The notes beneath the pieces were generated by a model. That model saw nothing but the letters and a program-made list of their open reading frames with translations, searched no databases and was not told where the DNA came from. Made by a program: the position numbers and the translations under genes. From Clostridium aciditolerans (GTDB taxonomy: Bacteria; Bacillota; Clostridia; Clostridiales; Clostridiaceae): a DNA stretch of 32,000 bases. Below, one piece after another: positions 3,206 through 31,405 of the stretch (within the stretch, counting starts at the first letter, position 1; every line of letters starts with the position of its first letter). The stretch is taken from contig NZ_JAEEGB010000035.1 of the NCBI RefSeq assembly GCF_016316925.1, forward strand, positions 167,063 to 199,062, given 5' to 3'.

Positions 3206-3207
3206 AA

Positions 3208-5367: not shown

Positions 5368-6985
5368 TTTCTATCTCCTCAAAAATTGCTTTATGTAAAT
5401 GTCTTTGATTAAGAATCTTATTAATTGATTTATCTAAAACAGATCTATTAGTAAAGTGCTTATATTTATTTGTATCAATTAATAGTCTATTAATTAAATC
5501 TTGATCAATATTGTGTTTATCACATAAATTTGATATTTCATCAATGGTTTTTTTATCAAACATAGGCTTTTTATAGTCATCCCATGGAAGTCTTTCACCC
5601 ATAACTTCATGATATAAATCAACTAAGGTTCTGTGAGTTAAATCCTCTTCATCATCCCAAATCTTATCTATAGCTTCTAATTCTTCTTTAGAAATAAGAT
5701 CAATTTCATACTCTTCATTAATTAGTTTTTGTAATTCTAAAAGTTTTTTTAGAATCTCTTGTCTAGCTATAAAATTAAAAGGCCCATATCCAAGTACATT
5801 TATAAATTCACCTTTATCATCTTTTTGAACTTTAGATTTATCTAAAATGACATTATTAGAATTATTGATATTAAAAAGTGGAAGTAATTCTAAATAAATT
5901 TTATCCTTCTCTTCAGAAGTATATTTGTTTCCTTTGTCTATTTCCGATTGACAATTTTTTAAATCAATATATCCCTCACCATCACCATTAGCAAAAAGAT
6001 AGTCTGAATTTATAACATAGTTATCTAATAAAGGCAATTTATCTAAGTATAATTTTTTATAATAGTGATTTCCATCTCTTCTATACTGCATTCTATATTC
6101 ATGCTTGTTACGAATGCCGACTATCCATTGTCGAAAATCAAGCAAAGGTTGAAGCCAGGTTTCACCATTTTCAATAAATCCGGTTAAAGATTTATCTTTA
6201 GTTACAACTGTACAAATCCAACAACCAAGCCTAGAGTTGCCACAAGTTGGTGTTTCTTTATCATTAGTAGTAGTAAAAGGACATTCGCCGCCATCAGCAC
6301 CCATATATAATGTAAATAAATCATTATTACTAGCACCCCATGGATTATTGCCATTATTAGAAAGCAAAAATCCCCATACGTCATCTGTAGTCAAATTAAC
6401 TATAGGATTATATACATAAGTACTATCAAGAGAACCATGAGGAGTCAAAAGATATCCATCAATTTCTCTGTTTTTAATTCTTATACTTCTAGCAATACTT
6501 TCAGCTTTTCTAACCCCTAAAAGAATAACTACTTCACCATTTTCTTTTACTTTTTCTTCAATAAATGTATTAGATGGTTTAATTTTAAGCTTTTCAGTAC
6601 ACCATCTAAATCTAATGGAAGTAGGAGTAGGGAGCCCTTTGCCAATTATGTTAGTCCAGTATGTATTATCATAATTAGGGTGAACCATATGAGTATACAG
6701 TGGAATATTTGCTTTTTTTGCGCCTTCATTTATTAGGGCTGAATTATGTTTTAAATATCCTAAAACAAGAGGGTTTTCTATAAGAGTATCAGAAGATACT
6801 ACATAAACAGCCTTATGTCTTTCTTCTAGTGGTAACTGCATAAGCATAGTAAATACTAATTGAACAACAGTAGTACTATCTTTACCTCCACTATAGCCAA
6901 TAACCCAAGGTCTTGAGTCGTTTTTATATACTCTTTTCATTTCTTCTAATATATCATCAATTTTTGATTGTATTTCGCTGTTCAT
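5357..6985 (-). CDS. dndC: DNA phosphorothioation protein DndC (PAPS reductase/PP-loop ATP pyrophosphatase family)
   Basis: PP-loop GYSGGKDSTT and the Cys cluster CGNSRLGCWICT typical of DndC. Located between dndB and dndD. Confidence 0.9.
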   Translation of the reverse strand: MNSEIQSKIDDILEEMKRVYKNDSRPWVIGYSGGKDSTTVVQLVFTMLMQLPLEERHKAVYVVSSDTLIENPLVLGYLKHNSALINEGAKKANIPLYTHMVHPNYDNTYWTNIIGKGLPTPTSIRFRWCTEKLKIKPSNTFIEEKVKENGEVVILLGVRKAESIARSIRIKNREIDGYLLTPHGSLDSTYVYNPIVNLTTDDVWGFLLSNNGNNPWGASNNDLFTLYMGADGGECPFTTTNDKETPTCGNSRLGCWICTVVTKDKSLTGFIENGETWLQPLLDFRQWIVGIRNKHEYRMQYRRDGNHYYKKLYLDKLPLLDNYVINSDYLFANGDGEGYIDLKNCQSEIDKGNKYTSEEKDKIYLELLPLFNINNSNNVILDKSKVQKDDKGEFINVLGYGPFNFIARQEILKKLLELQKLINEEYEIDLISKEELEAIDKIWDDEEDLTHRTLVDLYHEVMGERLPWDDYKKPMFDKKTIDEISNLCDKHNIDQDLINRLLIDTNKYKHFTNRSVLDKSINKILNQRHLHKAIFEEIENDN

Positions 6986-6987
6986 AA

Positions 6988-8073
6988 TTAATCCTCCATT
7001 TTGCAGTCATTTTCTAATTTAAGTTCGTCCTTAGCCAAAGGAAGATTTAACTTAATTTTTATAAGATTGCAAGTCAATCTTACATATGTAGCACTTTTAA
7101 CAATTCTACCTGTTGGGCCAATTACTCTGCCTTGCCAATCATTTAAATTTGATCTGTGCCAATCTATATCTTTAATTTTTGAAAGGATCTCTTTCCAATC
7201 ATTTGGATTATTCTTATATAAATAATTAGCAACAAGTCCTAGTGCTTCAAGAACAACAGCATTAGAACTTATGTAGTCACTTCTGAAAAGGGTTGGACTT
7301 GTATGCTTATTAAATACAAATTGCCATTCTTTCATATTCTCACAAAGTAGATCCCAAAACTCATAAACAAAAGTAGTAGTTTGAGAATCGTTGATATTTA
7401 GCTTGTTAATTAATTTTTTATTTGTTTCGTTTAAACTGCTGAGAGTAAAAAGTTTTGGTGAAAATTTAGATAAAGAAGGATTTTCTTTATCAGTATAATT
7501 TTTCAAGTAAGCATTTTCTTCAAGCAGTCCTTTAGTAAGCATAGCTATTGGATCTCTAGAGTCATATAAAATTCCAATTGATTTTGATACATTAACAGCA
7601 TGCTTATTCAAATCAGCAAAAATTTGCTGACTACGCTTTAAACCTTCATCTATAAATAGAACAACAGAAATTGTTTCATCCTCAAGTTCAGGGGAAGCTT
7701 TTAATGCTTCTTCAATAGCAGCCCGTCGATGTTGGCCATCATTAATAAGTAATCTGCTGTCCATAGATACCCTTAGTACTCCAATTTTTTCATCAAAATC
7801 TTTGTTTATAGGTGTAAAATCAAATTCACCATCTATTGAAGCTGTCACAGATGAAAAAACATAATCATTTGGATTGTTAAGTATATAAGATGCCATTTCA
7901 GGAATTCTAGCTTTATTTAGAATTCTTTGAGCTCTATGCTCAGGTGGCAAATCATCTTCATTAAAAAGAAACAATTTAGATAAAATTGATAATGGACACA
8001 TTATCACAAAAAAATCTCTATTTGCTTGTTTGCCTTTTACAGCTGGAAAAGTGTAATAAAAGTTACTTTTCAT
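6988..8073 (-). CDS. dndB: DndB (DGQHR-domain regulator of phosphorothioation)
   Basis: Contains the diagnostic INDGQHRRAAIEE (DGQHR) motif. It is the first gene of the operon, with RBS AGGAGG 5 nt upstream of the ATG (8077-8082). Confidence 0.85.
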   Translation of the reverse strand: MKSNFYYTFPAVKGKQANRDFFVIMCPLSILSKLFLFNEDDLPPEHRAQRILNKARIPEMASYILNNPNDYVFSSVTASIDGEFDFTPINKDFDEKIGVLRVSMDSRLLINDGQHRRAAIEEALKASPELEDETISVVLFIDEGLKRSQQIFADLNKHAVNVSKSIGILYDSRDPIAMLTKGLLEENAYLKNYTDKENPSLSKFSPKLFTLSSLNETNKKLINKLNINDSQTTTFVYEFWDLLCENMKEWQFVFNKHTSPTLFRSDYISSNAVVLEALGLVANYLYKNNPNDWKEILSKIKDIDWHRSNLNDWQGRVIGPTGRIVKSATYVRLTCNLIKIKLNLPLAKDELKLENDCKMED

Positions 8074-11369: not shown

Positions 11370-13492
11370 TTGAATATTGAAAAGAACCTTATTCTTATAA
11401 AGAATGAAGATAAAACAGAAGAGGTTACATATTGTAAAAGGTCTAATCAAAAGTGTGACATTACTTTTAAAAATAATAAAACTTATACATATAGCAATTA
11501 CAATGTTGTGTGGAGTACCAATTTTATAGAAATTGATACACAAACAGTTATTGCCTACGAAAATAAAATTCCAATATCAGGTATAATTAAGATTATTAAA
11601 TTCCAAGAGCATAATTATATTAGATTAATATTTAAAACTGGATATCATAAGTTATATCATGTATCAGAGATAACTATAGAAAAGAATGCTTTAGAAAATT
11701 CAGCCTCTAAGAATTGCTTTACATATTTAAAGGAGCTTGCAAGTAATATTGATTTTGAAAATGATAATGATTTTATTAGTAAACAGTTTGAAGCTATGAC
11801 TGCCATTAGTCCAACCAGTGTTTTAGCTAACTATTTGAATCCAAAAACAATAAGACATTTAAAAAATAATAAACAAATAATATTTCCTTTTGGATTTAAT
11901 ATAAGTCAAAAAGAAGCTGCAGAAAAAGCTTTGAATAATCAAATTAGCATTATTGAAGGGCCACCGGGAATTGGAAAAACTCAGACCATACTAAACATTA
12001 TTGCAAATGCTATTATAGATAATAAAACAGTAGCTGTTGTTTCAAATAATAATTCTGCTACTTTGAATGTTTTTGAAAAACTTAAGAAATATATACATTA
12101 TATAAAAGATTTAATAAAAGTAAAAACAGAACGATTTTTGATGAAAATGCATTGTGGAAAAAATTTAGTAATTTCATTAACGAATATCCTATAATACTTA
12201 GTACAACTCATTCTTTAAGAAAATGTGCAAGTAGGAATTATTTGTTTGACTATGTTATCATAGATGAATCTTCCCAGATTGATATAGTTACTGGGGCTTT
12301 GGCTTTTTCCTGTGCTAAAAATGTTGTTATTGTAGGAGATTTAAAACAGTTGCCTAATGTAGTTACTAAAGAAAATAAAGATATTAGTAATAGTATTTAT
12401 GATAGATATAAGTTAAATGAAGCCTATAAATATTCAGAGAATAGTCTGCTATCTTCAATAAGCATGCTATATAGTGAGGTACCTAAGACATTACTCAGGG
12501 AGCACTATAGATGTCATCCTAAAATAATAGATTTTTGCAATAAGAAATTTTATGATGATCAACTGATTATTTTAACGGATGAAAGTTCCTGTGATAAACC
12601 TTTAGAAGTGTATAAAACAGTAAAAGGTAATCATGAAAGAAACCACTATAATCAAAGACAAATAGATGTAATATTAAAAGAAATAATTCCAAAATTAAAA
12701 GAAAATAAATCTGTAGGAATAGCGTCACCTTATAGAAATCAGATAAAGGAATTAAAAGATGTTATTAGTAGTGAAGATATTGAAATTGATACAGTACATA
12801 AATATCAAGGAAGGGAAAAAGAAATAATGATCCTTTCAACGGTTTCAAATGAAGCAAATGATTTTATGGATAATGCTAATCTTCTAAATGTAGCCATATC
12901 AAGAGCGGAGAATAAATTAATTATCGTTGTTTCTGACAATGAAGAATTACTGAATAGCAGTAATATTGGAGATTTAATTAGATATATACAATATAACAAC
13001 CTGGAAATCATAAATAGTAGTATATATTCTATATTTGACTTGCTATATAGTTCATATTCAGAACAATTGCTGGAGTTTATTAAAAAGAATAAAAAAGTTT
13101 CTAAGTATAATTCTGAAAATTTAATGAATTCGTTAATAGAAAAAGTATTAGCTTGTGAAGAATTCAAGTCATTAGGTAAGGTTTTACACTACCAACTTAA
13201 TATGCTTATTCGTGATACTTCGAAATTAGATGAAAAAGAATTAAAATATGTAACAAATCCATTAACTCATGCTGATTTTTTTATATTTAGAAAGATAGAC
13301 AAAATGCCTGTTTTAGTGGTAGAGGTAGATGGATATGCCTTTCATTTGAATAATCCAGAGCAATTGGAACGGGATAAGATGAAAGATAGAATTTTAGCGA
13401 AATATAATATACCAATATTAAGATTACCTACTAATGGAAGTGAGGAAGAAAAGAAGCTTAAAGAGAAACTAATTGAGGTATTGAATATTTAA
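11370..13492 (+). pseudogene. Disrupted SF1 (Upf1/DNA2-like) helicase with a C-terminal DUF2726/Vsr-like nuclease domain
   Basis: ORF 11370..12194 carries Walker A GPPGIGKTQT. ORF 12152..13492, in a different frame that is open from 12086, carries motif II VIIDESSQ, REHYRCHP, VHKYQGREKE and the C-terminal VVEVDGYAFH...RDKMKDRIL nuclease-like module. The frame switch lies at about 12086-12110. The I-to-II spacing looks short, so an internal deletion is likely. Confidence 0.7.
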
Positions 13493-13808: not shown

Positions 13809-15002
13809 ATGAATAGTATTATATTGATATCAATAATATTAGAGATGATAAAAATAAATAATAATTTAATTTCTATGGAGCCATATAAAGATATTTTCAT
13901 TAACATACTGACAAGGGATATCGATTTTAAAGATGCAATTTTAGATTTAGTAGACAACTCAATTGATGCTGCTAAGAAAACTAAAAAAACAAACGATTTA
14001 ACAAACTTTGAAATTAAAATAACAATTGATAAAAGCAAATTTGTAATAAATGATAACTGTGGAGGCATTAGTATAGATACTGCTACAAAGTCTGCATTTA
14101 GATTTGGCAATGATAAGACAAGCAGTCATGATGATCAATCAGTAGGAAGATTCGGCATTGGTATGAAAAGAGCTATTTTTAAAATAGGAAATATGATAAC
14201 AGTTGAGGCAGCAACAGAAAAGGAATATTTTAAGGTAATAATTGATGTGCTTGATTGGCAAAAACAGAAAGATTGGGATATTAAGTTCAAGCAGGTAATA
14301 GAGAATAAAAATAAAATGGTTGGGACAACCATTAAAGTAACCAATCTTAAAGAAGATACAACAAGGAAATTTACCCAAGGTACTTTTATAGTAGCTCTTG
14401 AAGAATCAATAAGAGAAAAGCATAGTGATGCCTTAGAGAATGGTATAAGAATTACATTAAATAACTTTGTTATCGATCCATTACCTAAAGAAAAACAGGT
14501 AAAAGTTACTGAACTAAAAATAAAGGAGAAGGGATTTACAGGTTCCATTTCTGTATATAAAGCTGAATGTAATAAAAAACTAGCCGGATGGTATATAAAA
14601 TTTAATAATCGTGTAATTATAAAAGCTGATAAGTCACAGCTAACAGGTTGGGGACTTTCGAAGATAAGAGATAAAATGAAGACGGGGGAATTTGAAGAAA
14701 GGTTTTCTTCTTTTAGAGGATATGTAGACTTAAAGGATACTAAATTTAGAATGTTACCTTTTAATACAACAAAGAATTCAGTTAATACAGACTCCGAGGA
14801 GTATGAGAAAATACTAGATTATATGGTTGAAGCTATGAATAAATCTATGCAGCATTTTCGTGATTTAGGATTAAGATGCATTTCATATAAGAGACCTGTT
14901 GAGCAGGTGACAAAACTTATGAAGTTATTAGATTTTAAATATGCTAAGGACGTTGGGGAGTATACTTACGATCAATATATAAAACACAACAATATTAAAT
15001 AA
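13809..15002 (+). CDS. GHKL (Bergerat-fold, MORC/MutL-like HATPase_c_3-type) ATPase
   Basis: Motif I LDLVDNSIDA, motif II INDNCGGI (DxGxG) and G2 box GRFGIGMKRA. The true start is uncertain (ATG at 13809, 13845 or 13875; none has a strong RBS). Confidence 0.75.
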   Translation: MNSIILISIILEMIKINNNLISMEPYKDIFINILTRDIDFKDAILDLVDNSIDAAKKTKKTNDLTNFEIKITIDKSKFVINDNCGGISIDTATKSAFRFGNDKTSSHDDQSVGRFGIGMKRAIFKIGNMITVEAATEKEYFKVIIDVLDWQKQKDWDIKFKQVIENKNKMVGTTIKVTNLKEDTTRKFTQGTFIVALEESIREKHSDALENGIRITLNNFVIDPLPKEKQVKVTELKIKEKGFTGSISVYKAECNKKLAGWYIKFNNRVIIKADKSQLTGWGLSKIRDKMKTGEFEERFSSFRGYVDLKDTKFRMLPFNTTKNSVNTDSEEYEKILDYMVEAMNKSMQHFRDLGLRCISYKRPVEQVTKLMKLLDFKYAKDVGEYTYDQYIKHNNIK

Positions 15003-15124
15003 GAACAAATGTTTGTGCAATTACTGGTAAAGTAAACCATACTATATCTATAAGTATTGGAGGGATATAGTATGGTTTATTCGTTTGTTGAAAAGAACTC
15101 TATTATGAAACTTTAATAAAAGAA
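14612..15124. repeat. Direct repeat copy 1 (~513 bp): 3' end of the GHKL gene, the intergenic region and the first codons of an Rpn gene
   Basis: Aligns base-for-base with 21087-21597. I count ~20 substitutions in the first ~480 nt. Similarity decays after 15094/21569. Confidence 0.9.
15072..15116 (+). pseudogene. 14-codon stub of an Rpn-family gene (MVYSFVEKNSIMKL*)
   Basis: Same RBS (GGAGGGATATAGT-ATG) and first 8 codons as the intact gene at 21547, then a premature stop. Scattered residual similarity continues to about 15200. Confidence 0.55.
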
Positions 15125-15244
15125 AAAGTCAAAGCTAAGGAATAGATAAAATCTGTAAATGTGTGAGATATTATGATGTTAATTTACATTTTTTAATATT
15201 AAAGTTAATTTTATGGGAGGAAAATAATTTATTTTATCGAATTA

Positions 15245-15274
15245 TATACAAATAACTATAAATTATTTGGAGGT
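15245..15274 (+). repeat. Left copy of the inverted 26-nt leader/RBS repeat (candidate recombination core site)
   Basis: CAAATAACTATAAATTATTTGGAGGT at 15249-15274 ends 6 nt before the ATG at 15281. Internal palindrome CAAATAA-CTATAAA-TTATTTG. The outer arm is TATACAAATAA (15245-15255). Confidence 0.85.
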
Positions 15275-15280
15275 CACTGT

Positions 15281-17731
15281 ATGCTAACTTTAAAACAGCA
15301 TGGAATTTACTCAGAAATAGAAAAAATAATATCAGTTAATAGTAATACTGATTATATTTATTTTGAGGGCCCAACAGGAAGTGGAAAATCAAAAATAATC
15401 CTAGATTTTATTTCAAATGTTTTAAGCCAATTCGAGAATTGGTCTTTTTATTACATAGAAGGTAAAGACCCCTTTGTAGAATCATATGCCACCATTACAC
15501 TTTCGAATTCAGATAAGACTAAGTCAAATAAATATCAGTTATCAAATGTAAATTTTAATTTGGGGTTTAGTATACCTGCAATAATGAGTTTGGGTATTAC
15601 AACTAGTTTTAAAAAGAATAGCATATTTGACGATAAAACAAATTCTGTATTAGTTGAACTAAATAAGCATGAAAATGAGAACATTGTAATAGTAGCAGAT
15701 AGTTTTCAACTATGGGATTCTGCTTCTCAAGAATTATTAAATACTATTATTAATTATCCTAATGTAATAAAAGGCAAAAGAGTGATAATTTTAATTATAG
15801 CTGATGAAGATGATCCTATTATAGAAAAATGTGATTATATTAATAGGTTTAAGAAAAAAAGTCATAATATAAAAATCAAAATGCTTGACAGAGATGAATT
15901 GAAAGAAATTTCAAAGGTTTTAGGCTATACCATTGGTCTGAGTAATGAACTAAAAGATATTATTATGTCGATAACAGGTGGAAATATTAGTTTTATAAAA
16001 ATGTTTCTTGAAGAATATACAGATTCAAAATCAGATAATTTTATATTAAATTATAATAATATAGATATTATGAATTTATTAGATAACCGCATGGAGCAGT
16101 TTGGAGAAAAAAAAGCTGATTTCATGGAGGTTTTGGAAGTATCTTCAATTCCTAAAGGTGCATTTAATTCAACTGAAATACAATATCTTTATAATAAAGA
16201 TGTAGTTGATGTGGAGAATGTTTTAGACGAATCGCAAAAAGCATCTATTTTAAAAGGTGAAATAGAATTTATGTTTTCTAATTATTTAGTTAGAAACTTA
16301 TTTTATAAAAAACTAAACGGAAAAAGTAAAATATTTCATAAAAAGTATGCTGAGTATTTAAAGAAATACAAACCTGAAAATTATATCAGTAGAGCATATC
16401 ATTTGAAATTATCGAATTTAAACGATACTATTGAAATAATTAATTTACTATCAATAGCTTATTGTAGAAGTTTAGAAAACAATAACAATTTCTCTGAATC
16501 AAATTCAATTTTAATGCAAATTGAAAAATTGAAAGATGAATCGTCAAATGATAGAGAAGTAATGAATTTATATGATAATTTTATTAATTTAAAATCTGCA
16601 TACGAAAGTTATTACCAAGAAAAGTATGATGAAGCTAATGATGAATTATTAAAAATTCCAGCAATAGGCCCTTTTCTATTTACAGCAGAAGTAGCCAGAT
16701 TTCATCTTATTGTAAAATCATTACTAGATATGGATACTGAAAATATATATGAAGCAGCTAAGGTTTTAAATGAAAAAATGAATGATTTATATATAGATGA
16801 AAGAGATGAATGGTGTCGATGTGCATTGGTACTCTTTTCTACCTATGCTAATAAATTAAATGATTGTAATTCTAGTAAAGAAGTTTATACTCAATTAGGA
16901 AAATTAATATCTAAATCTTATAATAATAGCAGTCTTCAGTATTTGAAGAATATAATATATAGAAAAGCTTGCATCTTTCAAACACCAGTAGAAGCTGAGA
17001 GGAGTACTTCTGAAAGTATAAAGTACTTTTATGAAAATGGAGATATATATCAATATTATATGTCATGTTGTAATCACTCTGGAAATTTAATTATTTTAGG
17101 TAAGTATGATGAAGCAATATATTCTTTATATGCTTGTCTAAATTCAATTAGAAAATATAAATTTATTAAATTCCCGACACAGCAAAAAATATATAATAAT
17201 CTATATTTGGCCTATTTCTTACGAAATTATCATAGTGATACTATTTCAAAAGAATATATAATTAAAATGAAAAGGAAGTTTGAAAAATTAATAAATGACC
17301 AATATAACGAGAGCAATGCAATCATACATATAAATTTGATTAATATCTGCGCTATTCTAGGAGAATATAATGAATGTTTTATAAAACTCAATACTCTTGA
17401 AAATGATATATTGGATAATAATGATGATGAATTTTACAAATATTATTTGTATAATATAAAGTTTGCACTAAATTCATTAACCCAAAATTGGGACGAAGCA
17501 GCTAAGAATTTAAATGATTTAAATAACTCTTTTCCTAATTATTTTACAAAGATAAAACGAAAAATAAATAACCGTAACAAATCTCTCCAACTTTTACTGG
17601 ACGATAAAATAACTTTATCACCAAAAGAATTGGATAAATGGATATATAAAAATTCAAAAAAGGACGATTGCTCTTGCAACTTTTTCTGTAGGTTATTTCT
17701 TTTTTCAGATTTACAATTTACTTCATTATAA
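15281..17731 (+). CDS. P-loop NTPase with a long TPR-like helical repeat region (STAND/AAA_16-like architecture, no recognisable effector domain)
   Basis: Walker A FEGPTGSGKSKI near the N-terminus and Walker B-like NIVIVADSFQLWD. About 450 aa of helical repeats follow (e.g. AYESYYQEKYDEANDEL, GKYDEAIYSLYACL). Strong RBS GGAGG. Confidence 0.7.
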   Translation: MLTLKQHGIYSEIEKIISVNSNTDYIYFEGPTGSGKSKIILDFISNVLSQFENWSFYYIEGKDPFVESYATITLSNSDKTKSNKYQLSNVNFNLGFSIPAIMSLGITTSFKKNSIFDDKTNSVLVELNKHENENIVIVADSFQLWDSASQELLNTIINYPNVIKGKRVIILIIADEDDPIIEKCDYINRFKKKSHNIKIKMLDRDELKEISKVLGYTIGLSNELKDIIMSITGGNISFIKMFLEEYTDSKSDNFILNYNNIDIMNLLDNRMEQFGEKKADFMEVLEVSSIPKGAFNSTEIQYLYNKDVVDVENVLDESQKASILKGEIEFMFSNYLVRNLFYKKLNGKSKIFHKKYAEYLKKYKPENYISRAYHLKLSNLNDTIEIINLLSIAYCRSLENNNNFSESNSILMQIEKLKDESSNDREVMNLYDNFINLKSAYESYYQEKYDEANDELLKIPAIGPFLFTAEVARFHLIVKSLLDMDTENIYEAAKVLNEKMNDLYIDERDEWCRCALVLFSTYANKLNDCNSSKEVYTQLGKLISKSYNNSSLQYLKNIIYRKACIFQTPVEAERSTSESIKYFYENGDIYQYYMSCCNHSGNLIILGKYDEAIYSLYACLNSIRKYKFIKFPTQQKIYNNLYLAYFLRNYHSDTISKEYIIKMKRKFEKLINDQYNESNAIIHINLINICAILGEYNECFIKLNTLENDILDNNDDEFYKYYLYNIKFALNSLTQNWDEAAKNLNDLNNSFPNYFTKIKRKINNRNKSLQLLLDDKITLSPKELDKWIYKNSKKDDCSCNFFCRLFLFSDLQFTSL

Positions 17732-18814
17732 TGAATTCAATAGATTCTTATATCTTAAGTAAGTCATACCGATTATGGTTGAGTAAATTTCATTATACGG
17801 AATACATAAATTTTCAAATGCAAAAGCAAAAGAACTATGTTTTGTTGTGTATGGAGTTGAAGCAATATCAATTAAATAGGGGTTGCCAAAATTATCAATT
17901 CTAAAGTCAATTCTACCATAATTTTGTAATCCAATAATTTTACCTATTTTTGCTGATAATTCTTGAATAAATAAACATTGTTTTTTGTTTATTACCTCGG
18001 ATAAGTTATAAAAATTATAATCATCCTCAAATGAACGTTCATAAGTTAAAATTTCTGTGCTTAGATTAGGATTATTGTTAATTGATATACCTACAGGAGA
18101 CATAGTATGTACTTTATCAGAGATTATAAGTGGAACTTCGCATTCAAATCCAGATATAAATTCTTGTACAAACAGAGCTTCTTTTCTATTAATAAATATA
18201 TTTTCTAAAAAATCTAAAGAATTTTTATTGAAAGTATTAATTGAGTTATTGTCCATACCTATACTTGCGGATTCAGACATAGACTTTACAATAATTTGTG
18301 TTCCTATAGTAGGTTTAGAATCATTAAGCCATTTATTTTGGCCAATATATATCCAACTTTTAGGTATAGGTATACCATGCGCTTCTAAATATTTGGAATA
18401 TGTATATTTAGCTCTGCATAATGAAATTACAAATGCATTTGAGCCAGTATATGGTACTGTTATGAGGTCACAAAATGATGGAATGAGAGATTTTTTTCCT
18501 GGCTTTTTACCGTTTCTTGCTAAATTATAAACAATCTTGTTTTCAATGTTAAATTTTTTGTTTAATATATCAGACATAAAATTTATTTCATTAAAAAAAG
18601 CATGTACATAAAATTCTGAAGTCTGGATACCATCTAAAATTTCTGAATATTCTTCATCAGTAAAAAACTCATTTTCATCTGAATATTGTATTTCCATATT
18701 TTCAATAATCTTTGTTTTTGAACGAGAATTACTAATTAGAGCAATTTCAACTTCTTGATTAATGTTTGAAGTTGCTTTAAGTATTCTGTCAATAGTATTT
18801 TTTATTTCATTCAT
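17726..18814 (-). CDS. ATP-grasp enzyme of the D-alanine--D-alanine ligase family
   Basis: PYTGSNAFVISLCRAKYTYSKYLEAHGIPIP, IVKSMSESASIGM and GRIDFRIDNFGNPYLIDIASTPY match the Ddl-type ATP-grasp layout. I place the start at ATG 18814 (MNEIKN; GGAGG 6 nt upstream) rather than the track's 18859. The stop overlaps the convergent 816-aa gene by 6 nt. Confidence 0.75.
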   Translation of the reverse strand: MNEIKNTIDRILKATSNINQEVEIALISNSRSKTKIIENMEIQYSDENEFFTDEEYSEILDGIQTSEFYVHAFFNEINFMSDILNKKFNIENKIVYNLARNGKKPGKKSLIPSFCDLITVPYTGSNAFVISLCRAKYTYSKYLEAHGIPIPKSWIYIGQNKWLNDSKPTIGTQIIVKSMSESASIGMDNNSINTFNKNSLDFLENIFINRKEALFVQEFISGFECEVPLIISDKVHTMSPVGISINNNPNLSTEILTYERSFEDDYNFYNLSEVINKKQCLFIQELSAKIGKIIGLQNYGRIDFRIDNFGNPYLIDIASTPYTTKHSSFAFAFENLCIPYNEIYSTIIGMTYLRYKNLLNSL

Positions 18815-18820
18815 AATAAA

Positions 18821-18850
18821 ACCTCCAAATAATTTATAGTTATTTGGAGG
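18821..18850 (-). repeat. Right copy of the inverted 26-nt repeat, extended to an 11-7-11 palindrome
   Basis: 18821-18846 is the exact reverse complement of 15249-15274. The arms are CCTCCAAATAA (18822-18832) and TTATTTGGAGG (18840-18850), with spacer TTTATAG. It lies 15 nt from the recombinase stop codon (18866-18868). Confidence 0.85.
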
Positions 18851-18865
18851 TATTAGCATAAAAAA

Positions 18866-19804
18866 TTAAATCTTTAAAAGATTCCTAGCATTAAATTTTA
18901 ATAAAACCTGTTTCTTCCTTTCAGTAGATACCTCTGTATATATCTGAGTAGTAGTAATACTAGAATGGCCTAGTATTTCCTGTACAGATCTAATATCCGC
19001 CCCATTATTTAAAAGTTGAGTTGCGAAAGTATGTCTAAGATAATGAGGAGTAGATTTTGTATCAATTCCTGCTAGCTGTCTGTATTTTTCATATATATTT
19101 TCAATTGAATATATAGAAAGCTTGTCACCATATTTATTGATAAAGAGAGCATCGCATTTTGGGTTTAAATTTTCTCTTTCTATAATCCAAGTATTGAGGA
19201 TATTTATAACATCGGTACTGGATATAAATAGAAGTCTATCTTTTCTTCCTTTACCGTGAATCAAAAGGGTTTGTTCTTCTAAGGTTATATCATTTAATTC
19301 AATGTTAACAAGTTCACCTATCCTTATACCTACACAATACAATAATTCAATTATTGCTGCATTTCTTATGCTAATAGTCTTTCTGAATTCTGTCTGAATA
19401 TCTTTTAATTCTTCAATTGGTGATTTTAAAAGTTTTATTATATCTTGAGAGGGTAAAGTTTTAGGAAGTTTTTTTGAAGTTTTAAAGGAAATTCTCATAT
19501 TATCAAAAGGTGACTTACTTATAATATAATTATTGACTAAATATTTAAAAAAGGATTTTAAGGAAACATATTTTCTTTTTATTGATGTATCTTTCATTTC
19601 TTTGATATTTTGTAGCCAAAAAATATATGAGTTTATGGTGCTAATATTTATAGTGTTAATTGAGTTTTCTTTCAGCCACCTCAAAAAGCTTGATAAATCC
19701 GAATAGTAAGCTTTAGTGCTTTTTTCAGTGAGATTTCTTTCTATTTTAAGAGTACTTATATAATTATTAATGTTATCACTCATAATTTTTACATTACATT
19801 CCAT
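18866..19804 (-). CDS. Tyrosine recombinase, XerC/XerD-like
   Basis: The full catalytic set is present: GIRIGELVNI (Arg), HGKGRKDR (Lys), HYLRHTFAT (His-x-x-Arg) and LGHSSITTTQIYT (His...Tyr). An N-terminal SAM-like domain is also present (LTEKSTKAYYSDLSSFLRWL). The start is placed at ATG 19804 (GGAGGA 5 nt upstream); the track's 19828 is a TTG. Confidence 0.9.
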   Translation of the reverse strand: MECNVKIMSDNINNYISTLKIERNLTEKSTKAYYSDLSSFLRWLKENSINTINISTINSYIFWLQNIKEMKDTSIKRKYVSLKSFFKYLVNNYIISKSPFDNMRISFKTSKKLPKTLPSQDIIKLLKSPIEELKDIQTEFRKTISIRNAAIIELLYCVGIRIGELVNIELNDITLEEQTLLIHGKGRKDRLLFISSTDVINILNTWIIERENLNPKCDALFINKYGDKLSIYSIENIYEKYRQLAGIDTKSTPHYLRHTFATQLLNNGADIRSVQEILGHSSITTTQIYTEVSTERKKQVLLKFNARNLLKI

Positions 19805-19854
19805 AGTCTTCCTCCAATTCTTCTGCAATAATATTATAAATAAATTACAGAATT

Positions 19855-20343
19855 ATGTCGATATGTGAAAGACAAATAGATAAAAAAAGCTTAAATAATG
19901 AAGAGCTTACTAATGAGGAAATATTGGGTCTTACGTTTATACCATTAATGAAAGGAAAATTAACTAGAACGGAAAGAACCATAAAAAGTATAGAATTAGC
20001 AAATAAGATAGAAACAGGAGAAAAAAAGATAAAGTGTCTTACAATGCTATATGCACTTTTAGAGAAGTTTGGAGATGAAGAAAGTAAGAAAAAATTCAAG
20101 GAGGTATTTAATATGACTGAGATAGGTAAAATGATATTGGAAGATGGAATGGCAAAAGGGATGGAAAAAGGAAGAGCTGAAGGAAAAGTAGAGCTTTTGC
20201 TTAAGCAATTAACTAAAAAATTCAAAAAAATACCGGAAGAATATAAAAAAAAGATAAAAGAATTGCCAGATGAAACACTTGAAATAATAGGGTTAGAGAT
20301 ATTTGATATAGAAGATATTAAAGAGCTGGAGAAATATTTTTAA
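19855..20343 (+). pseudogene. C-terminal fragment of an Rpn-family (YhgA-like PD-(D/E)XK) recombination-promoting nuclease/putative transposase
   Basis: Only the C-terminal half is present (LTMLYALLEKF...ILEDGMAKGMEKGRAEGKVELLLKQL, the GxEKGxxxG tail typical of Rpn proteins). The N-terminal nuclease core is absent. Confidence 0.6.
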
Positions 20344-20525
20344 TTTATAAATTTGGAGTAGAAGCTATTGTCATATAACAACTGGTGGTGCTCCAATAGA
20401 TATAGTTAAAGTTGATAGTTTAGCATTAATAAATAAAGAAAATTGAAATGGTAAAGACACCTGGAATCAAATTCTTGAGGAAAGCTTTGTATATTAATTA
20501 TGAGAATAAGGTAGGAGGTACACAA

Positions 20526-20705
20526 ATGAAATGGGAGGATGTAAGAAAGCAATATCCTAATATTTTTGTAAAGTTTGAGATAGTTGAATCTCATATTGAA
20601 GAGGATAAGGAAATAGTAGACGAAGTTGCTTTTATTAAGGCTATTAAAGACGGAAAAGAAGCTATGGTGGAACATTTAAAATGTAAAAATAGTCAGTATG
20701 TATAT
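20526..20705 (+). pseudogene. 3'-truncated small ORF (MKWEDVRKQYPN...) running into the antisense of the SRP RNA
   Basis: Strong RBS AGGTAGGAGG before ATG 20526. From about 20703 the reading frame is simply the antisense of ffs, so the listed 140-aa product (20448..20870) is not credible as a whole. Confidence 0.45.
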
Positions 20706-20948
20706 CGTGCACCCACTGTTGACCTAGTTAGCTCAAACCAGGTTGTTCCACGGCACTTAAAAGTGATCACTTACCGCTGCTTCCTTCCGGATCTGACGGA
20801 GTTCATGAGTTTCTGCTGCATGGGACCCAGTTCTCAATACCACTTTGACCAGGCAGGCCCAACAGACTAAAGTCTATAGGGGGAATTCAATCCTGCTGTA
20901 GCGGATTGCAGGTTACAGGGCACCGCTGGCTCCCCATCTAGCACGAAT
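20703..20948 (-). ncRNA. ffs: Signal recognition particle RNA, long Bacillus/Clostridium type (scRNA/4.5S homologue with Alu domain)
   Basis: The minus strand reads GTCAGATCCGGAAGGAAGCAGCGGTAAG (conserved domain IV) and GCGGTGCCCTGTAACCTGCAATCCGCTACAGCAGG (Alu domain, near-identical to B. subtilis scRNA as I recall it). The 5' TCGTGC pairs with the 3' GCACGA. A GC-rich island in AT-rich DNA. Ends are accurate to +/-5 nt. Confidence 0.88.
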
Positions 20949-21014: not shown

Positions 21015-21086
21015 GAATATATAAATAGTAATTATTACCTAATATTAAGATTACTTATTTAGGATGGATTAATAATTGAACTAACA

Positions 21087-21597
21087 TGTAATTATAAAAG
21101 CTGATAAGTCACAGCTAACAGGTTGGGGGCTTTCGAAGATAAGAGATAAAATGAAGACTGAGGAATTTGAGGAAAGGTTCTCTTCTTTTAGAGGATATGT
21201 AGACTTAAAGGATACTAAATCTAGAATGTTACCTTTTAATACAACAAAGAATTCAGTTAACACAGACTCCGAGGAGTATGAGAAAATACTAGATTATATG
21301 GTTGAGGCTATGAATAAATCTATGCAGCATTTTCGTGATTTAGGATTAAGATGCATTTCATATAAGAGACCTGTAGAGCAAGTGACAAAACTTATGAAGT
21401 TATTAGATTTAAAATATGCTAAGGATGTTGGTGAGTATACTTATGATCAATATATAAAAAACAACAATATCAAATAAGAACAAATGTTTGTATAATTACT
21501 GGTAAAGTAAACCATACTATATCTATAAGTATTGGAGGGATATAGTATGATTTATTCGTGTGTTGAAAAGGATTATTTTATAGCTTTAATAAAAGAA
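21087..21597. repeat. Direct repeat copy 2 (~511 bp)
   Basis: See copy 1 (14612-15124). The offset between copies is 6475 bp. Confidence 0.9.
21088..21477 (+). pseudogene. Orphan 3' fragment (about 129 codons) of a GHKL ATPase gene
   Basis: The translation is about 95% identical to the C-terminus of the 13809..15002 product. A stop lies immediately upstream (21082-21084), and there is no N-terminal ATPase domain. Confidence 0.85.
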
Positions 21598-22641
21598 GAA
21601 AACAATAATTATGGAGGGAAGAAGAGAAAAAATCATATTCAGATGGATAAAATTTTAAAGCGTTTATTTACACTAAAAAACACTATACCAATTATAGATT
21701 TTCTTAACGCAGCCTATAATGACGATATATCTTATGAAGCTAAACTATATTATGCAGATAAGGAAATTAATAATTTTGAAAAGAAAAGTAGCCGCTACAT
21801 AAGTTATTATGCTGATATGTATATAAAGGTTATAGATAAGAAAAACGTTTATGAATATGAAATAGAATTTCAAACAATTTATGAAAATAGTATGGTTATA
21901 AGAATGTTTAGATATGGTTTTGAGAGAGCAGTAAATATCTCATACTACAATAGTATAAAGGAAGGTAGATTAAGAATAAAATTACCAGAACCATATCTTA
22001 TAGTGTTAGAAGAAGATAAGAATGTACCTAACAGTATATACTTAGAAATAGAGATTCCAAAGCAAGATACAATTACATATAGTTGTAAAGTATTGAAGTA
22101 TTTTAGCTATGATATTGATAAACTATTAAAGGAAAATATGTATCTACTGCTGCCACTGCAGGTATTTAGATTAAGAAAGAAAATGTATCAAATAAGTATT
22201 AGTAATCTACTCTTTGAAGAAAAGAAAAGTAAAATGATCGACGTGTATAATGAATTGAAAATAGTTATAGAAGATACTTTAAAAGCTATAGATTTATCGT
22301 ATAATGGTAATAAGATAACTTTAGAAGATTATGATGAAATGACATCTACTATAGAAAACATTAACTCATATTTTTTAGGCATGTATGGAAAATATACAGA
22401 TTTTGATGAGGAGGTTAGGGAAATGGTGAAGAGCTTTTATGATCCTAAGGTTGAAGAAAGAGGAATAGAAAAAGGAATAGAGAGAGGAAAGATACAAGGT
22501 AAGATTGAGGAAAAAATTGAAACAGCAACAGAGATGATTAAAGATGGAGAGCCTATAGAAAAAATCAAAAAGTATACAAAGCTAGATGAAAATAAGATTT
22601 TGGAATTAATAAAACAAATAGGAACTGAAAAAGTTCAATGA
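21547..22641 (+). CDS. Rpn-family recombination-promoting nuclease/putative transposase (PD-(D/E)XK)
   Basis: YADMYIKV...YEYEIEFQT matches the D...ExQ nuclease core. The C-terminal tail is ERGIEKGIERGKIQGKIEEKIE. The start is placed at ATG 21547 (GGAGGG 7 nt upstream) rather than 21532. Confidence 0.75.
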   Translation: MIYSCVEKDYFIALIKEENNNYGGKKRKNHIQMDKILKRLFTLKNTIPIIDFLNAAYNDDISYEAKLYYADKEINNFEKKSSRYISYYADMYIKVIDKKNVYEYEIEFQTIYENSMVIRMFRYGFERAVNISYYNSIKEGRLRIKLPEPYLIVLEEDKNVPNSIYLEIEIPKQDTITYSCKVLKYFSYDIDKLLKENMYLLLPLQVFRLRKKMYQISISNLLFEEKKSKMIDVYNELKIVIEDTLKAIDLSYNGNKITLEDYDEMTSTIENINSYFLGMYGKYTDFDEEVREMVKSFYDPKVEERGIEKGIERGKIQGKIEEKIETATEMIKDGEPIEKIKKYTKLDENKILELIKQIGTEKVQ

Positions 22642-26214: not shown

Positions 26215-26545
26215 CTTGGCTTCAGGTGGAGTTTTAAACTCCATCTGAAGCTTATTAACAGGCTTCTTAGTGTCTTTAGCACTTAGAAGGCGTTATCCTT
26301 TAGGGGAAAACGTTATCCAGGGGCGTAGCGCCACTTATCCCCAACTTTATGAAAAGCAGAGAGCCCAAATCTCTGATTTGGTGCGAATCGCTTTCACAGA
26401 GTGCAAGCAGAGAACCCAAATGTTAAGCAGGCATCCAAAATCTATGATTTTGAGATGATCGCTTACACAGCGTGCTGATTTGGTGTGAATCGTTTTCACA
26501 GAGTACGTTGGGGTGTTAGTGGCGGTAGACATCGGATAAATCTAA
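26215..26545 (+). ncRNA. Candidate structured non-coding RNA/leader with nested 51-nt repeat units
   Basis: GC-rich patch in AT-rich DNA with no credible ORF. Hairpins at 26219-26251 and about 26262-26292, and GTTATCC(N)AGGGG repeats. The 51-nt units at 26354-26404 and 26425-26475 are 39/51 identical. A third unit is split (26405-26421 plus 26476-26506) around the second. It ends in motif copy B followed by a terminator. The strand is inferred from the terminator and the downstream gene. Confidence 0.5.
26497..26543 (+). repeat. ~40-nt GC-rich motif, copy B (core TTAGTGGCGGTAGACATCGGATAAA at 26516-26540)
   Basis: See copy A (23823-23862). Confidence 0.6.
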
Positions 26546-29626: not shown

Positions 29627-29986
29627 GGTAATTCACCGACCTTAGCTTTAGTTTAGATTACACTTAATATATATGTAAAGTTAAAGAAAATGGGAAAGGA
29701 AAAAGTGTTAATGAATTGTAAACATTACAGTATTACAACTTTTATAAAGTAGATAGAGTAGTAATTTTGTTTTTATGATCCCTGGCTTGTACTATAAAAT
29801 ATACATTTTTGTTATTTTGTAATAGTTGTATTTAGTTAATGGAAAAGCTTTATTTTGAAGGGGTAAGAGGATTACAGACTGTTGTAAGTGTGGAGTAATT
29901 GATGTAATGTTTTGATATAACTAAAATAGGAACGGATGTTTGTGTAAAAGCTGAAAATTGGACCAATACTATAGTTAAGTAAAATT

Positions 29987-29995
29987 TGGTATAAT
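29987..29995 (+). promoter_or_regulatory. Extended -10 promoter element TGGTATAAT upstream of the integrase-like gene
   Basis: TGnTATAAT at 29987-29995, about 50 nt upstream of ATG 30044. No good -35 hexamer. Confidence 0.4.
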
Positions 29996-30043
29996 TAAAC
30001 TAAAAGAATATTTTAATATGAGATTTAATGATGTGAGGAAATA

Positions 30044-31405
30044 ATGAGTTTAATAATTAAGTATAATAGTTATTTATTGAAACAGGGATATAGTGATAAT
30101 ACTCAAAACTTATATATATACTACCTTAAGAAATTTATGTATTGGCATCAGAAAGAAATGAAAAGGTCTTTGGATCATATTAAGCTGGAGAAAAGTACAG
30201 TGACACAATATATACAATATTTATCATCAAAGTATAGTACAAGCTCTGTGAATAGCCATATTAAATTTATAGTAGCATATAATAAATTTCTTATAAATGA
30301 AGGAATACAAGAAACTATGGTTGCTGCTAATAATCTAATAATAGAAATTCCTAAGAAAAAGGTTGAAAAGATAAAAATAAATGAAAGAGATGTTGAAGCT
30401 TTACTTATGGAAGTTTGTTCAAATGACAGTATTAAAAATTCTACAATTCTCTGTCTCATAGCTTATGCAGGCTTAAGGACTAGCGAAGTAGTTGAACTTC
30501 AGTTAAAACATATAGATTTTGATAATAGAAAAATTCATATCAGTGGCAAATATACAAGAGATATACCAATGAATTCATCAGTAGAAAATTCTTTGAAATT
30601 ATATTTAAAAGATGAAGAGATAATAAAAGATTATTTATTTATAAATGAAAGAAATATAAAATACACTAGTGCAGGAATACACTGGATACTTAGAAAGAAT
30701 CTTTCTGACTTTAATATAACCATAAATACTTTGAGAAACTTTTATATGTCAAAACTTAAATCTCAAGGATACAGCGAAAAAGAAATAGATGAGATATGCG
30801 GCTACTCAACTAAAAAGAAGGACTATACAAATAAAAAAATAAAAGAAATGCTTACAGTTAAACAGTTTGCAGAATTAGTTGAAGTAACTCCTGCAACTAT
30901 AGTTAAATGGTGTAATGATAATAAAATTAAAAGTTATAAAGACTATTGGGGACACAGACGAATACCTAGCTTAGAAGCGGAAAGATTAAAAAATGAAAAT
31001 AAATGTCTAGTAGATAAAAAATACATAGAGAATTTTTTAGAAGATTTATTATCAAAGGGAAAAATTAAAGTATCAATAATTCTAATGCTTATAGCTTATG
31101 CTGGATTTAATGAAATTGAAATCTTGGATATTAAAAGAGAGAATGTAAACATAGATAAAAAAGTTATTATAATTGAAGACGGCAAAGAAGTATATATACC
31201 TCAACCTATAATTGAACCTTTAATTCAGTATTTAAGGGAAGTTCCTAGTAATCAAAAGTATTTATTTGTGAATAAATTCGGGGAAAAACATGTAAAACAT
31301 AATATTAAAGATTTATTAAGAGGAAATTGCAAGGATACTAATATAACTTTATTAGTTTTAAAGAAATTTTATCGGTTAAATCTCAGTTATAATAATAGAG
31401 GTTAA
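30044..31405 (+). CDS. Atypical tyrosine-recombinase-like protein: SAM-like N-domain, a partly degenerate catalytic domain, an excisionase/MerR-type HTH and a second degenerate catalytic-like repeat
   Basis: Module 1: LIAYAGLRTSEV (Arg kept), TLRNFYMS (Arg kept; the His usually 3 residues before it is Asn) and CGYS...DYT (His to Tyr). HTH: LTVKQFAELVEVTPATIVKWCNDNKI. Module 2: LIAYAGFNEIEI (Arg lost) and LKKFYRL (Arg to Lys), with no terminal Tyr motif. Confidence 0.65.
   Translation: MSLIIKYNSYLLKQGYSDNTQNLYIYYLKKFMYWHQKEMKRSLDHIKLEKSTVTQYIQYLSSKYSTSSVNSHIKFIVAYNKFLINEGIQETMVAANNLIIEIPKKKVEKIKINERDVEALLMEVCSNDSIKNSTILCLIAYAGLRTSEVVELQLKHIDFDNRKIHISGKYTRDIPMNSSVENSLKLYLKDEEIIKDYLFINERNIKYTSAGIHWILRKNLSDFNITINTLRNFYMSKLKSQGYSEKEIDEICGYSTKKKDYTNKKIKEMLTVKQFAELVEVTPATIVKWCNDNKIKSYKDYWGHRRIPSLEAERLKNENKCLVDKKYIENFLEDLLSKGKIKVSIILMLIAYAGFNEIEILDIKRENVNIDKKVIIIEDGKEVYIPQPIIEPLIQYLREVPSNQKYLFVNKFGEKHVKHNIKDLLRGNCKDTNITLLVLKKFYRLNLSYNNRG

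Follow-up and report, generated by a model that had tools for sequence, protein, structure and literature searches.

Inversion of the phage Mu G segment by Gin, and of the phage P1 C segment by Cin, exposes one or the other of two opposed gene sets to a fixed promoter that lies outside the segment, and in both cases the invertase gene adjoins it. The Mu enzyme is a serine invertase that works with an enhancer and Fis; its crossover falls within coding sequence, where a constant N-terminus is joined to variable tail-fibre C-termini, and the Mu system is no platform for cassette exchange. In Mycoplasma agalactiae and M. bovis, inversion by Xer1 (Mbr) at the vpma and vsp loci puts alternative promoterless genes behind a fixed promoter (PMC2268961). 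In the cwpV switch of Clostridioides difficile, a hairpin and U-tract form at the junction of inverted repeat and inverted region in one orientation only, and constitute an orientation-dependent terminator (PMC2784873). The partner sites of dif modules have identical spacers (PMC13141974), and integron cassettes often encode anti-phage systems (bioRxiv 10.1101/2024.07.02.601686). Here we analyse a stretch of 32,000 nt from Clostridium aciditolerans (assembly GCF_016316925.1, contig NZ_JAEEGB010000035.1, positions 167,063 to 199,062; this whole stretch is termed ‘the window’, and its own coordinates are used throughout), which contains a conserved module at 15201-19870: a non-coding ‘X’ flank, an X site, a cassette of two genes, a ‘Y’ site, and the gene and promoter of a XerD-like tyrosine recombinase. 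We think it likely that this dedicated recombinase flips the two-gene cassette between the paired sites and so alters its expression, and that the same sites also bound exchangeable cassettes.

At the core of both sites is a 26-mer, CAAATAACTATAAATTATTTGGAGGT, which occurs at 15249-15274 on the + strand and at 18821-18846 on the - strand. A degenerate search of the 32-kb window that allowed up to three mismatches returned no further match, and the chance expectation, from 100 shuffles of the window, was zero matches. With a repeat finder the inverted match lengthens to 43 nt (15232-15274 and 18821-18863), with a complementarity of 84%. At both copies the start codon follows 6 nt after GGAGGT: the ATG at 15281 on the + strand, and that at 18814 on the minus strand. 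The left, or X, recombination site (15245-15274, + strand) has a degenerate outer arm, TATACAAATAA (15245-15255), a CTATAAA spacer (15256-15262), and an inner arm, TTATTTGGAGG (15263-15273), with a further T; this inner arm is also the Shine-Dalgarno (SD) sequence of the ATPase gene behind it. The right, or Y, site (18821-18851, - strand) is a perfect 12-7-12 palindrome, ACCTCCAAATAA-CTATAAA-TTATTTGGAGGT, which on the + strand reads ACCTCCAAATAA-TTTATAG-TTATTTGGAGGT; it stands about 15 nt from the recombinase stop codon (18866-18868). The 7-nt spacer is asymmetric and is opposite at the two sites (CTATAAA on the left vs TTTATAG on the right, both on the + strand). The segment is flanked, then, by two inverted sites with an asymmetric crossover region, which is the arrangement of an invertible switch. 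An initial annotation of the window, made from its letters only, had described the 26-mer and its exact reverse complement, the 6-nt distance from each copy to the ATG of the gene it faces, a weaker similarity continuing outward to 15232 and 18863, and oppositely oriented spacers; our search of the window, the repeat finder and a reading of both sites bear all of this out. Its right-hand palindrome is likewise where it was placed beside the recombinase gene, but the arms have 12 paired positions and not the 11 that had been counted.

In relatives of this module the segment does invert. We oriented all loci with X on the left and Y on the right before comparing their interiors (related loci carry the handles L001, L002 and so on): the Y flank in every locus is the recombinase gene's 3’ end, after which comes CCTCC(A/T), and the X flank in every locus is non-coding and ends in ...TATACA, ...CATACT or ...TAGCCA. 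The isolate assembly of Paenibacillus taichungensis DSM 19942 (k=141) contains four contigs of 257 nt, each with the site in its middle, which represent all combinations of two outer with two inner flanks (identities of 116/116 and 117/117), and the segment itself appears as a separate contig of 3870 nt that is bounded by the sites. A repeat of 24 nt cannot branch a k=141 graph without reads for all four junctions. A second observation comes from a comparison of P. xylanexedens (L034) with Paenibacillus sp. ClWae2A (L042): the flanks are collinear (93-94%) and the interiors are reversed (3536-7110 vs 7283-3715, 86%), with breakpoints at the sites. The same holds for L034 vs L066, again with collinear flanks and a reversed interior; flank identities across the L042 and L066 comparisons are 84-94%. 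The ATPase of L034, a full-length homologue of the window's (36% identical), is found on the Y side in L034 and on the X side in the window. Among metagenome loci, one and the same gene stands on X or on Y (L062 and L063), and a single Y flank is joined to two different genes (L059 and L064).

Draft assemblies of site-bearing organisms routinely break at this locus. In six isolate drafts the segment is a contig bounded exactly by the two sites, and the Logan (k=31) and JGI contigs L004, L006, L008 and L074 each have an end at the site. Taken together with the four junctions in one culture, these breaks indicate that flipping is frequent, as in phase variation. Closest to the window is Logan contig L080 (SRR28699216), from C. 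aciditolerans, which encodes a recombinase identical to that of the window and ends exactly at ...CCTCCAAATAACTATAAATTATTTGGAGGT (...GGAGGT); L078 and L079 read through the site in the window's orientation, and runs SRR28692089 and SRR7026330 also contain the identical recombinase. The end of L080 is suggestive: were both genes to occur behind the Y flank in that sample, a k=31 graph would be expected to branch at this very point. The initial annotation had proposed that inverted core sites of the adjacent Xer-type recombinase flip the segment and leave the outer arms attached to the flanks, and had recommended a search of related genomes for the flipped arrangement; that search was successful (in the four junctions, in L034 vs L042 and L066, and in the same gene on either flank), and the relatives behave as proposed.

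The recombinase gene (18866-19804, - strand) encodes a XerD-like tyrosine recombinase of 312 aa (Pfam Phage_integrase, 1.5e-42; PDB 1a0p XerD, 9e-41), 100% identical to a Clostridium aciditolerans protein, in which the catalytic R, K, HxxR, H and Y residues are all present and the C-terminal tail, ERKKQVLLKFNARN, is specific to the family. Its scores lie below the XerC and XerD equivalog cut-offs (TIGR02224, 252.8 vs 335.15; TIGR02225, 244.5 vs 329.6), and below those of the integron-integrase NCBIfam models (107 vs a cut-off of 265; 80 vs 435). At E<=1e-40 it has 2677 homologues. In 27 loci, on contigs from Clostridium, Paenibacillus, Brevibacillus-type bacteria and metagenomes, 8-26 nt separate the end of the gene from the Y site, and the recombinase is linked to the site at every locus with a readable Y flank; this adjacent enzyme is the presumed catalyst of the inversion. 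Two side observations concern its more distant homologues. In the Enterococcus Y flanks (L014, L039, L043 and L056; the L039 homologue is 46% identical to the window's recombinase) the recombinase frame, read by eye, seems to continue into the Y site's outer arm, with the TAA within CCAAATAA as its stop codon (...DVKTSK*); if this frame reading is right, the gene and its own Y site would seem to overlap. In a metagenome-assembled genome (MAG) of the Synergistaceae (L081, JAISRP010000117.1, 4337-6129), a GC-rich spacer of 245 nt separates a 51%-identical recombinase from the ThsB-like TIR gene that comes after it. L081 has no recognisable site, and it may represent a diverged version of the platform outside the Bacillota.

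Alignments across genera indicate that the 24-26-mer is under much stronger constraint than the DNA around it. In Brevibacillus parabrevis (L007/L075) the element AATAACTATAAATTATTTGGAGGT precedes both genes with 24/24 identities, in a locus where the ATPase is 39% and the recombinase 55% identical to those of the window and the surrounding DNA aligns at no more than 65% or not at all. Across modules with proteins of only 39-55% identity, the site is either the same or departs by 2 bases, and then at both copies. Where the element varies, both copies of a locus vary together: a CATTAAA spacer occurs at both copies in L008, a CTATAGA spacer at both copies in Tepidibacter (L073/L074), and a GGGGG inner-arm variant (TTATTTGGGGGT) at both copies in L082-84. 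Spacer identity between partner sites is a requirement of tyrosine-recombinase strand exchange, and it thus marks the element as a recombination site; a repressor operator would not need it. The family is rare. In a collection of one genome per species (185,579 species representatives) the exact 24-mer was found in 48 stretches from about 25 genomes, the hosts being Paenibacillus spp., Enterococcus (termitis, quebecensis, sp. 5H and BWB1-3), Clostridium akagii, an Erysipelotrichaceae bacterium and Bacillota MAGs; JGI metagenomes contributed 14 more stretches. Its locations are chromosomal (CP014331, CP194938 and others), and because the site was not found in viral contigs, a phage origin is unsupported. 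Three complete Paenibacillus genomes hold exactly two copies each, inverted and 1.7-4.4 kb apart. This copy number also settles a doubt raised in the initial annotation, namely that the 26-mer might be a common leader in front of many unrelated genes: it behaves as a recombination site.

We hypothesize that inversion acts on gene expression as follows. The 26-mers would be the core sites of the XerD-like recombinase, with arms of 11-12 bp, an asymmetric 7-bp spacer and inverted orientation, and recombination between them would flip the 3.6-kb cassette. The two cassette genes are convergent, with a 6-nt overlap, an arrangement that would leave no room for promoters of their own, and the inner arm of each site would be the ribosome-binding site of the gene behind it: GGAGG in the inner arm lies 3-10 nt before every cargo start codon. 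The flanks would stay put, and they would differ in the signals that they supply. The X flank probably holds a promoter that fires at or into the site, in which case the gene docked there would have a short leader and a free SD; if transcription from the X side starts at the edge of the site, the outer arm would remain untranscribed. Transcripts from the recombinase promoter, on the other hand, would carry both Y arms and could form a hairpin of 12 bp in which the SD is hidden, and where the leader is U-rich, as is that of the ATP-grasp gene in the window, the Y hairpin would resemble an intrinsic terminator. The gene on X would then be expressed and that on Y attenuated, or terminated if its leader is U-rich; in its present state the window would have the ATPase on and the ATP-grasp enzyme off or low. 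Flipping would swap the well-expressed and the attenuated gene and so yield a mixed population. The effect of orientation, whether on translation or on transcription, is a prediction that draws on folding calculations and on the promoter and terminator signals described below.

The predicted energies of the four possible leaders support what the initial annotation had deduced by inspection, that the SD of the ATP-grasp gene is sequestered, that of the ATPase gene is free, and the outer arms swap upon inversion. The Y plus ATP-grasp leader has a predicted energy of -19 kcal/mol (z -6.35), and the X plus ATPase leader one of -4 kcal/mol (z +0.85); for the hypothetical flipped leaders the predictions are -18 and -7.3 kcal/mol. 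Across loci, mean predicted folding is -17.2 kcal/mol for Y sites (n=33) vs -6.0 for X sites (n=29), and it is invariably the recombinase side that has the CCTCC outer arm and, with it, the hairpin that sequesters the SD. In the RNA of the window's Y site the hairpin includes the ATP-grasp SD and is followed by UUUAUUAUG; the Y palindrome is the sole terminator-like site in the 5.2 kb from 14900 to 20100. Leaders that start with UUUU precede 21 of 36 distinct small (enzyme) genes vs 1 of 19 large (STAND-like) genes (p=1e-4, uncorrected for kinship), and in a tally that is likewise uncorrected for kinship, the genes with UUUU leaders are on the Y side in 15 of the 17 cases in which the side is known.

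The promoters that the flanks would supply are visible to different degrees. Upstream of the recombinase gene, a promoter-like site, TCGACA-17-TATAAT (19833-19861, - strand), is the best in the region, with 11/12 matches, and it is kept, as judged by eye, as TAGACA-17-TATAAT in L001 and L005. In the window's X flank (15201-15244, + strand; non-coding and kept in L001, L005, L009 and L077), the -10-like hexamer is TCGAAT (15237-15242), and relatives have TAGAAT or TATAAT at the same position; TATAAT in Enterococcus, or TAGAAT in most Clostridium loci, ends 8 nt before AATAAC. Both the promoter role of the X flank and the position of such a promoter are inferred from hexamers of this kind. As a separate observation, we noted that a motif, (A)TGTGTCGAATA, TTATCGAAT or ATTCGACA, is found repeatedly before the X site in loci of different genera. 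It lies about 60-75 nt before the site in L013, L025, L034, L036, L041, L042, L048, L051, L061 and L066, and is present in L039, L065, L067 and L072 too; in the window, TATCGAAT directly adjoins the X site (15235-15242). The motif is similar to the recombinase promoter around its -35 region (in the window, ATATCGACATAAT), and it could be an accessory recombinase site or the site of a regulator.

Another key observation, and one that the initial annotation lacked, is that the sites also bound exchangeable cassettes. When the P. xylanexedens locus L034 is compared with other Paenibacillus loci (L035, L051, L061 and L036), homology of the flanks extends as far as the sites (77-96%; 92-96% identity on the left, about 80% on the side of the recombinase), and the interiors, mostly gene pairs of the immunity type, have nothing in common. 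The boundary is sharp: in L034 vs L035 the alignment stops at 3563 and resumes at 7084, and the sites are at 3536-3559 and 7087-7110. In Enterococcus, too, the same X and Y flanks enclose differing cargo. A double site-specific crossover is the simplest reading of this replacement, and we rate it below inversion.

The cassettes hold two or three non-paralogous genes for cytoplasmic-type enzymes or ATPases, and they are compact: convergent genes abut or run into each other in the window and in L001, L007, L008, L030, L031, L035, L039, L051, L073 and L077. The cargo types are a P-loop/STAND-TPR ATPase with an ATP-grasp enzyme (the window's type); an NB-ARC/TPR protein with a SHMT-like enzyme, sometimes plus an ADH_N gene; the Thoeris proteins ThsA (SIR2-STALD, 3.7e-100) and ThsB (TIR, 1.4e-9) in Enterococcus sp. 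5H (L039); a TIR-like with a TPR-S protein; a methyltransferase with an unknown protein; a pentapeptide-repeat protein; and, by sequence motif only, other TIR-like, radical-SAM-like and P-loop-kinase-like proteins. The Thoeris cargo deserves a remark of its own: at 4074-6212 of L039 (NZ_AMDP01000014.1) a complete type I Thoeris pair sits within the cassette, with thsA docked at X and thsB at Y, tail to tail and not in the usual co-directional operon.

Several results weigh against the combined account of flipping, altered expression and exchange. A scan of the window's X flank found no promoter of at least 9/12 matches, and -35/-10 scoring of 30 X flanks gave no consistent -10 in Paenibacillus or in the window. 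A weak point of the proposal that a terminator is completed by the leader of only one of the two genes is its dependence on the strict UUUU criterion, under which it is significant; with a looser criterion (at least five T in 8 nt) the leader asymmetry has p=0.26 and the association with the Y side p=0.089, both uncorrected for kinship. The Clostridium-type and Brevibacillus-type loci that were recovered (the window, L001-L009 and L075-L078) all have the same orientation, and the flipped junction, CCTCC+26-mer+CACT, had zero matches in JGI metagenome contigs; with a single orientation among the window's close relatives, contig ends are what speaks for inversion of its own type of module. Homologous recombination in the conserved flanks could leave the same pattern of cassette replacement as a double site-specific crossover. 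Finally, Thoeris needs ThsA as well as ThsB, and a strict either/or switch would leave it off in both states; for this cargo the Y side must leak, or else the switch would set ratios instead of on/off states, or one orientation would be ‘armed’ and the other ‘safe’.

Some of these points would be expected under another explanation, namely that the sites and the recombinase are mainly a docking platform for promoterless two-gene cassettes, with inversion a by-product and no phase-variable phenotype: both genes would be expressed either way, one from the X flank and the other by read-through from the recombinase promoter. The exact replacement of cargo at the sites on a conserved Paenibacillus backbone fits such a platform, as do the use of the same site by at least eight unrelated cargo types, the need of two-component systems such as Thoeris for both genes, the identical SD-bearing inner arms, which make a cassette expressible in either docking direction, and the lack of significant asymmetry under the looser terminator criterion. 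It is at odds, however, with the strong and conserved SD hairpin on the Y flank only, which a platform for equal expression would not need, with the four junctions in one clonal culture and the frequent assembly breaks at the sites, and with the presence of UUUU-leader genes on the Y side in most assemblies. We regard docking without switching as rather unlikely.

Three further explanations fare much worse than this. Were the 26-mer a shared operator or leader that co-regulates both genes, for example a palindromic repressor site in DNA that never recombines, then a palindromic sequence overlapping the translation start region of both genes would be expected, and so would the single orientation of all Clostridium-type loci recovered; the four junction contigs of one isolate, the interior reversed between collinear flanks, the non-palindromic spacer variants common to both copies of a locus, and a recombinase gene that always adjoins the site already contradict it at the level of the family, and we consider it very improbable for the window. 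Even slimmer are the prospects of a transposon, or of an element like a miniature inverted-repeat transposable element, that carries two genes between terminal inverted repeats: a 43-nt imperfect inverted repeat does bound a gene-bearing segment, but the segment has no transposase, the recombinase gene and the rest of the flanks move together with the repeats, cargo changes while repeats and flanks stay, start codons keep a fixed 3-10 nt from the repeat, and the genomes have no copies elsewhere. Finally, we attach next to no credence to the idea that the right palindrome is the chromosomal dif, acted on by a housekeeping Xer for dimer resolution, with the left copy a chance or degenerate duplicate, since a XerD-like recombinase and arms that end in ATAA / TTAT beside the spacer, as in dif and pdif, are set against two inverted copies per complete genome (not a single 28-bp 11-6-11 dif per replicon), a 7-nt spacer with symmetric arms, a recombinase under the XerC and XerD equivalog cut-offs, differing genomic contexts of the module between strains, and the rarity of the family (about 25 of 185,579 species representatives with the exact site).

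With inversion by a dedicated recombinase as our preferred reading, we turn to the window's own cargo and surroundings. Cassette gene 1 (15281-17731, + strand) encodes an 816-aa P-loop ATPase (ATPase_2, STAND-like; Pfam PF01637, 7e-10) with a helical or TPR-like C-terminal part. Among 5.8 billion proteins it has only six homologue clusters, and on every contig that is long enough the homologues are paired with an ATP-grasp gene and the recombinase. Cassette gene 2 (17726-18814, - strand) encodes a 362-aa ATP-grasp enzyme, D-Ala-D-Ala-ligase-like (Pfam PF07478, 3.3e-17; far under the cut-offs of the NCBIfam Ddl models), and its start at 18814 is kept in all homologues. Curated defence-system models in PADLOC gave the ATPase only a marginal P-loop match (mad8, 3.5e-4) and the ATP-grasp enzyme none, and neither PADLOC nor NCBIfam names either protein; the defence role of this cargo is putative. 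In blastn searches with 15191/15201-19777/19870 of the window, homology reached 88% in L001/L002 and 85% in L005 and ended at those limits: it spans from about 50 nt left of the X site to just beyond the recombinase promoter-like site. What lies around the module varies between loci (for example, next to Wadjet, or next to DUF2357/PDDEXK_7).

The neighbourhood in the window has features of its own. A dnd (DNA phosphorothioation) cluster at 1620-8073 (- strand) encodes a cysteine-desulfurase-like DndA, DndE, an SMC-like DndD, a PAPS-reductase-like DndC, and DndB, and with it the module counts as part of a defence island. At 11370-13492 (+ strand), a superfamily-1 helicase whose C-terminal domain is DUF2726 matches the Mokosh MkoC/MkoA models of PADLOC; it is split into two overlapping open reading frames (ORFs), 11370-12194 and 12152-13492, and is probably frameshifted or a pseudogene. 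A direct repeat of about 525 nt and about 96% identity (14610-15135 and 21085-21610) comprises the 3’ end of a HATPase_c_3 gene (13809-15002), an intergenic region and the first codons of an Rpn-like gene, which in its left copy is truncated after 14 codons and in its right copy (21532-22641) is intact. Between the two repeat copies lie 6.47 kb with the invertible module, a DUF4351 fragment and a signal recognition particle (SRP) RNA gene, and the arrangement looks like the trace of a single-crossover insertion or duplication. The RNA gene is of the bacterial large SRP type (20705-20946, - strand; Rfam RF01854, 162 bits). An ORF at 20448-20870 overlaps it; residues 27-87 of this ORF (~20526-20708) match the PADLOC candidate PDC-M08A (3.5e-20), and the part over the RNA gene is probably non-coding. 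At 26373-26504 there are three copies of a 30-nt repeat, CTGATTTGGTGCGAATCGCTTTCACAGAGT (73-100% identity, spaced by 71 and 31 nt), in a region with no long ORFs and no Rfam or tRNA match. Further right, a second tyrosine integrase with HTH_17 (30044-31405) adjoins a 757-aa protein with a weak Pox_D5-like match (27353-29626), and 27353-31405 may be an integrated mobile element that is unrelated to the switch.

Viewed more broadly, we find the arguments evenly balanced as to whether these loci form an undescribed class of chromosomal cassette docks in Bacillota, ‘flip-and-swap’ docks, that phase-vary and exchange compact two-gene immune systems, and in which a dedicated Xer-like recombinase may act on a near-universal 29-31-bp site that doubles as a ribosome-binding site. 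If this is true, whole two-gene immune systems, bona fide Thoeris among them, would be under reversible inversion by a small portable platform, a hitherto undescribed bet-hedging layer over costly abortive-infection immunity; the site and its recombinase would also be a search handle for new defence systems, the window's STAND plus ATP-grasp pair being one such. A single 24-nt element would serve as recombinase core site, as Shine-Dalgarno and, on one side only, as RNA hairpin. The exact site is kept across Clostridium, Paenibacillus, Enterococcus, Brevibacillus and Tepidibacter, which makes it a simple sequence handle, and it could be used to harvest candidate defence genes (STAND + ATP-grasp, STAND + SHMT-like with or without ADH, and methyltransferase pairs). 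The recombinase and its site are also a possible compact natural pair for cassette exchange in Gram-positive bacteria.

How does this module stand beside the systems with which we began? The initial annotation knew of no described switch of this design; no description came to light in our survey either, although there are partial precedents in Xer1/vpma, cwpV and the dif modules. The site sequence was not found in the literature, a search in which subscription journals were largely uncovered, so that absence is no proof, and with similarly incomplete coverage nothing linked Thoeris to DNA inversion beyond an unrelated paper on PinQ. No paper was found that describes the trio of STAND, ATP-grasp and recombinase, or that combines at least four of the terms STAND NTPase, ATP-grasp, tyrosine recombinase, inversion and TPR; a survey of gene-altering programmed inversions makes no mention of Paenibacillus, Thoeris, ATP-grasp or ribosome-binding sites, and a study of serine recombinases as defence markers does not cover the system. 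The dock, which in other Bacillota has immune genes, Thoeris among them, as its cargo, appears to be undescribed.

The likeness to Xer1 at vpma and vsp is that a Xer-like recombinase is encoded beside the locus and that the sites are in the 5’ leader, directly before start codons (PMC2268961). Those loci, however, contain several paralogous surface-lipoprotein genes with one expression site, and serve antigenic variation, whereas the present cassette pairs two unrelated partner genes, the other fixed flank bears a SD-sequestering hairpin, the 29-31-bp site contains the SD, and the cargo is exchangeable and of the immunity type; the hosts are walled Bacillota, and the single promoter is putative. 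With cwpV and RecV the module shares inversion by a tyrosine recombinase, in a relative of Clostridium, and a promoter outside the invertible DNA (PMC2784873). In cwpV the invertible element is a short non-coding leader that acts on a single gene downstream of it, and the gene for RecV lies elsewhere in the genome; the present module flips whole genes, would affect two of them reciprocally, and has a hairpin that is the recombination site itself.

The pdif modules of Acinetobacter also lie between inverted Xer-type sites, invert, and are replaced on a conserved backbone (PMC13141974; PMC6449649); their partner sites have the same spacer (PMC13141974), and the ends of the arms (ATAA / TTAT) are similar. 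Their sites, in contrast, are 11-6-11 with distinct XerC and XerD arms, are acted on by the housekeeping XerCD of the host, and occur on Rep_3 plasmids, often in arrays, and not as 11/12-7-11/12 sites with symmetric arms and a dedicated adjacent recombinase around one chromosomal cassette, for which the site supplies the ribosome-binding site and the flanks supply the expression signals. As in integrons, the gene of a tyrosine recombinase lies beside a docking site, and compact promoterless cassettes are expressed from signals of the platform. Integrons, however, recombine attC hairpins with attI and build a cassette array, none of which is present here; two identical, inverted, double-strand sites bound the cassette, which flips and is not excised. 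The module belongs to none of the Xer1/vpma, dif-module and cwpV families: the defining features in which it departs from the known systems are its dedicated recombinase, symmetric arms, 7-nt spacer, single chromosomal cassettes and non-paralogous cargo, and the lack of IntI, attI and attC.

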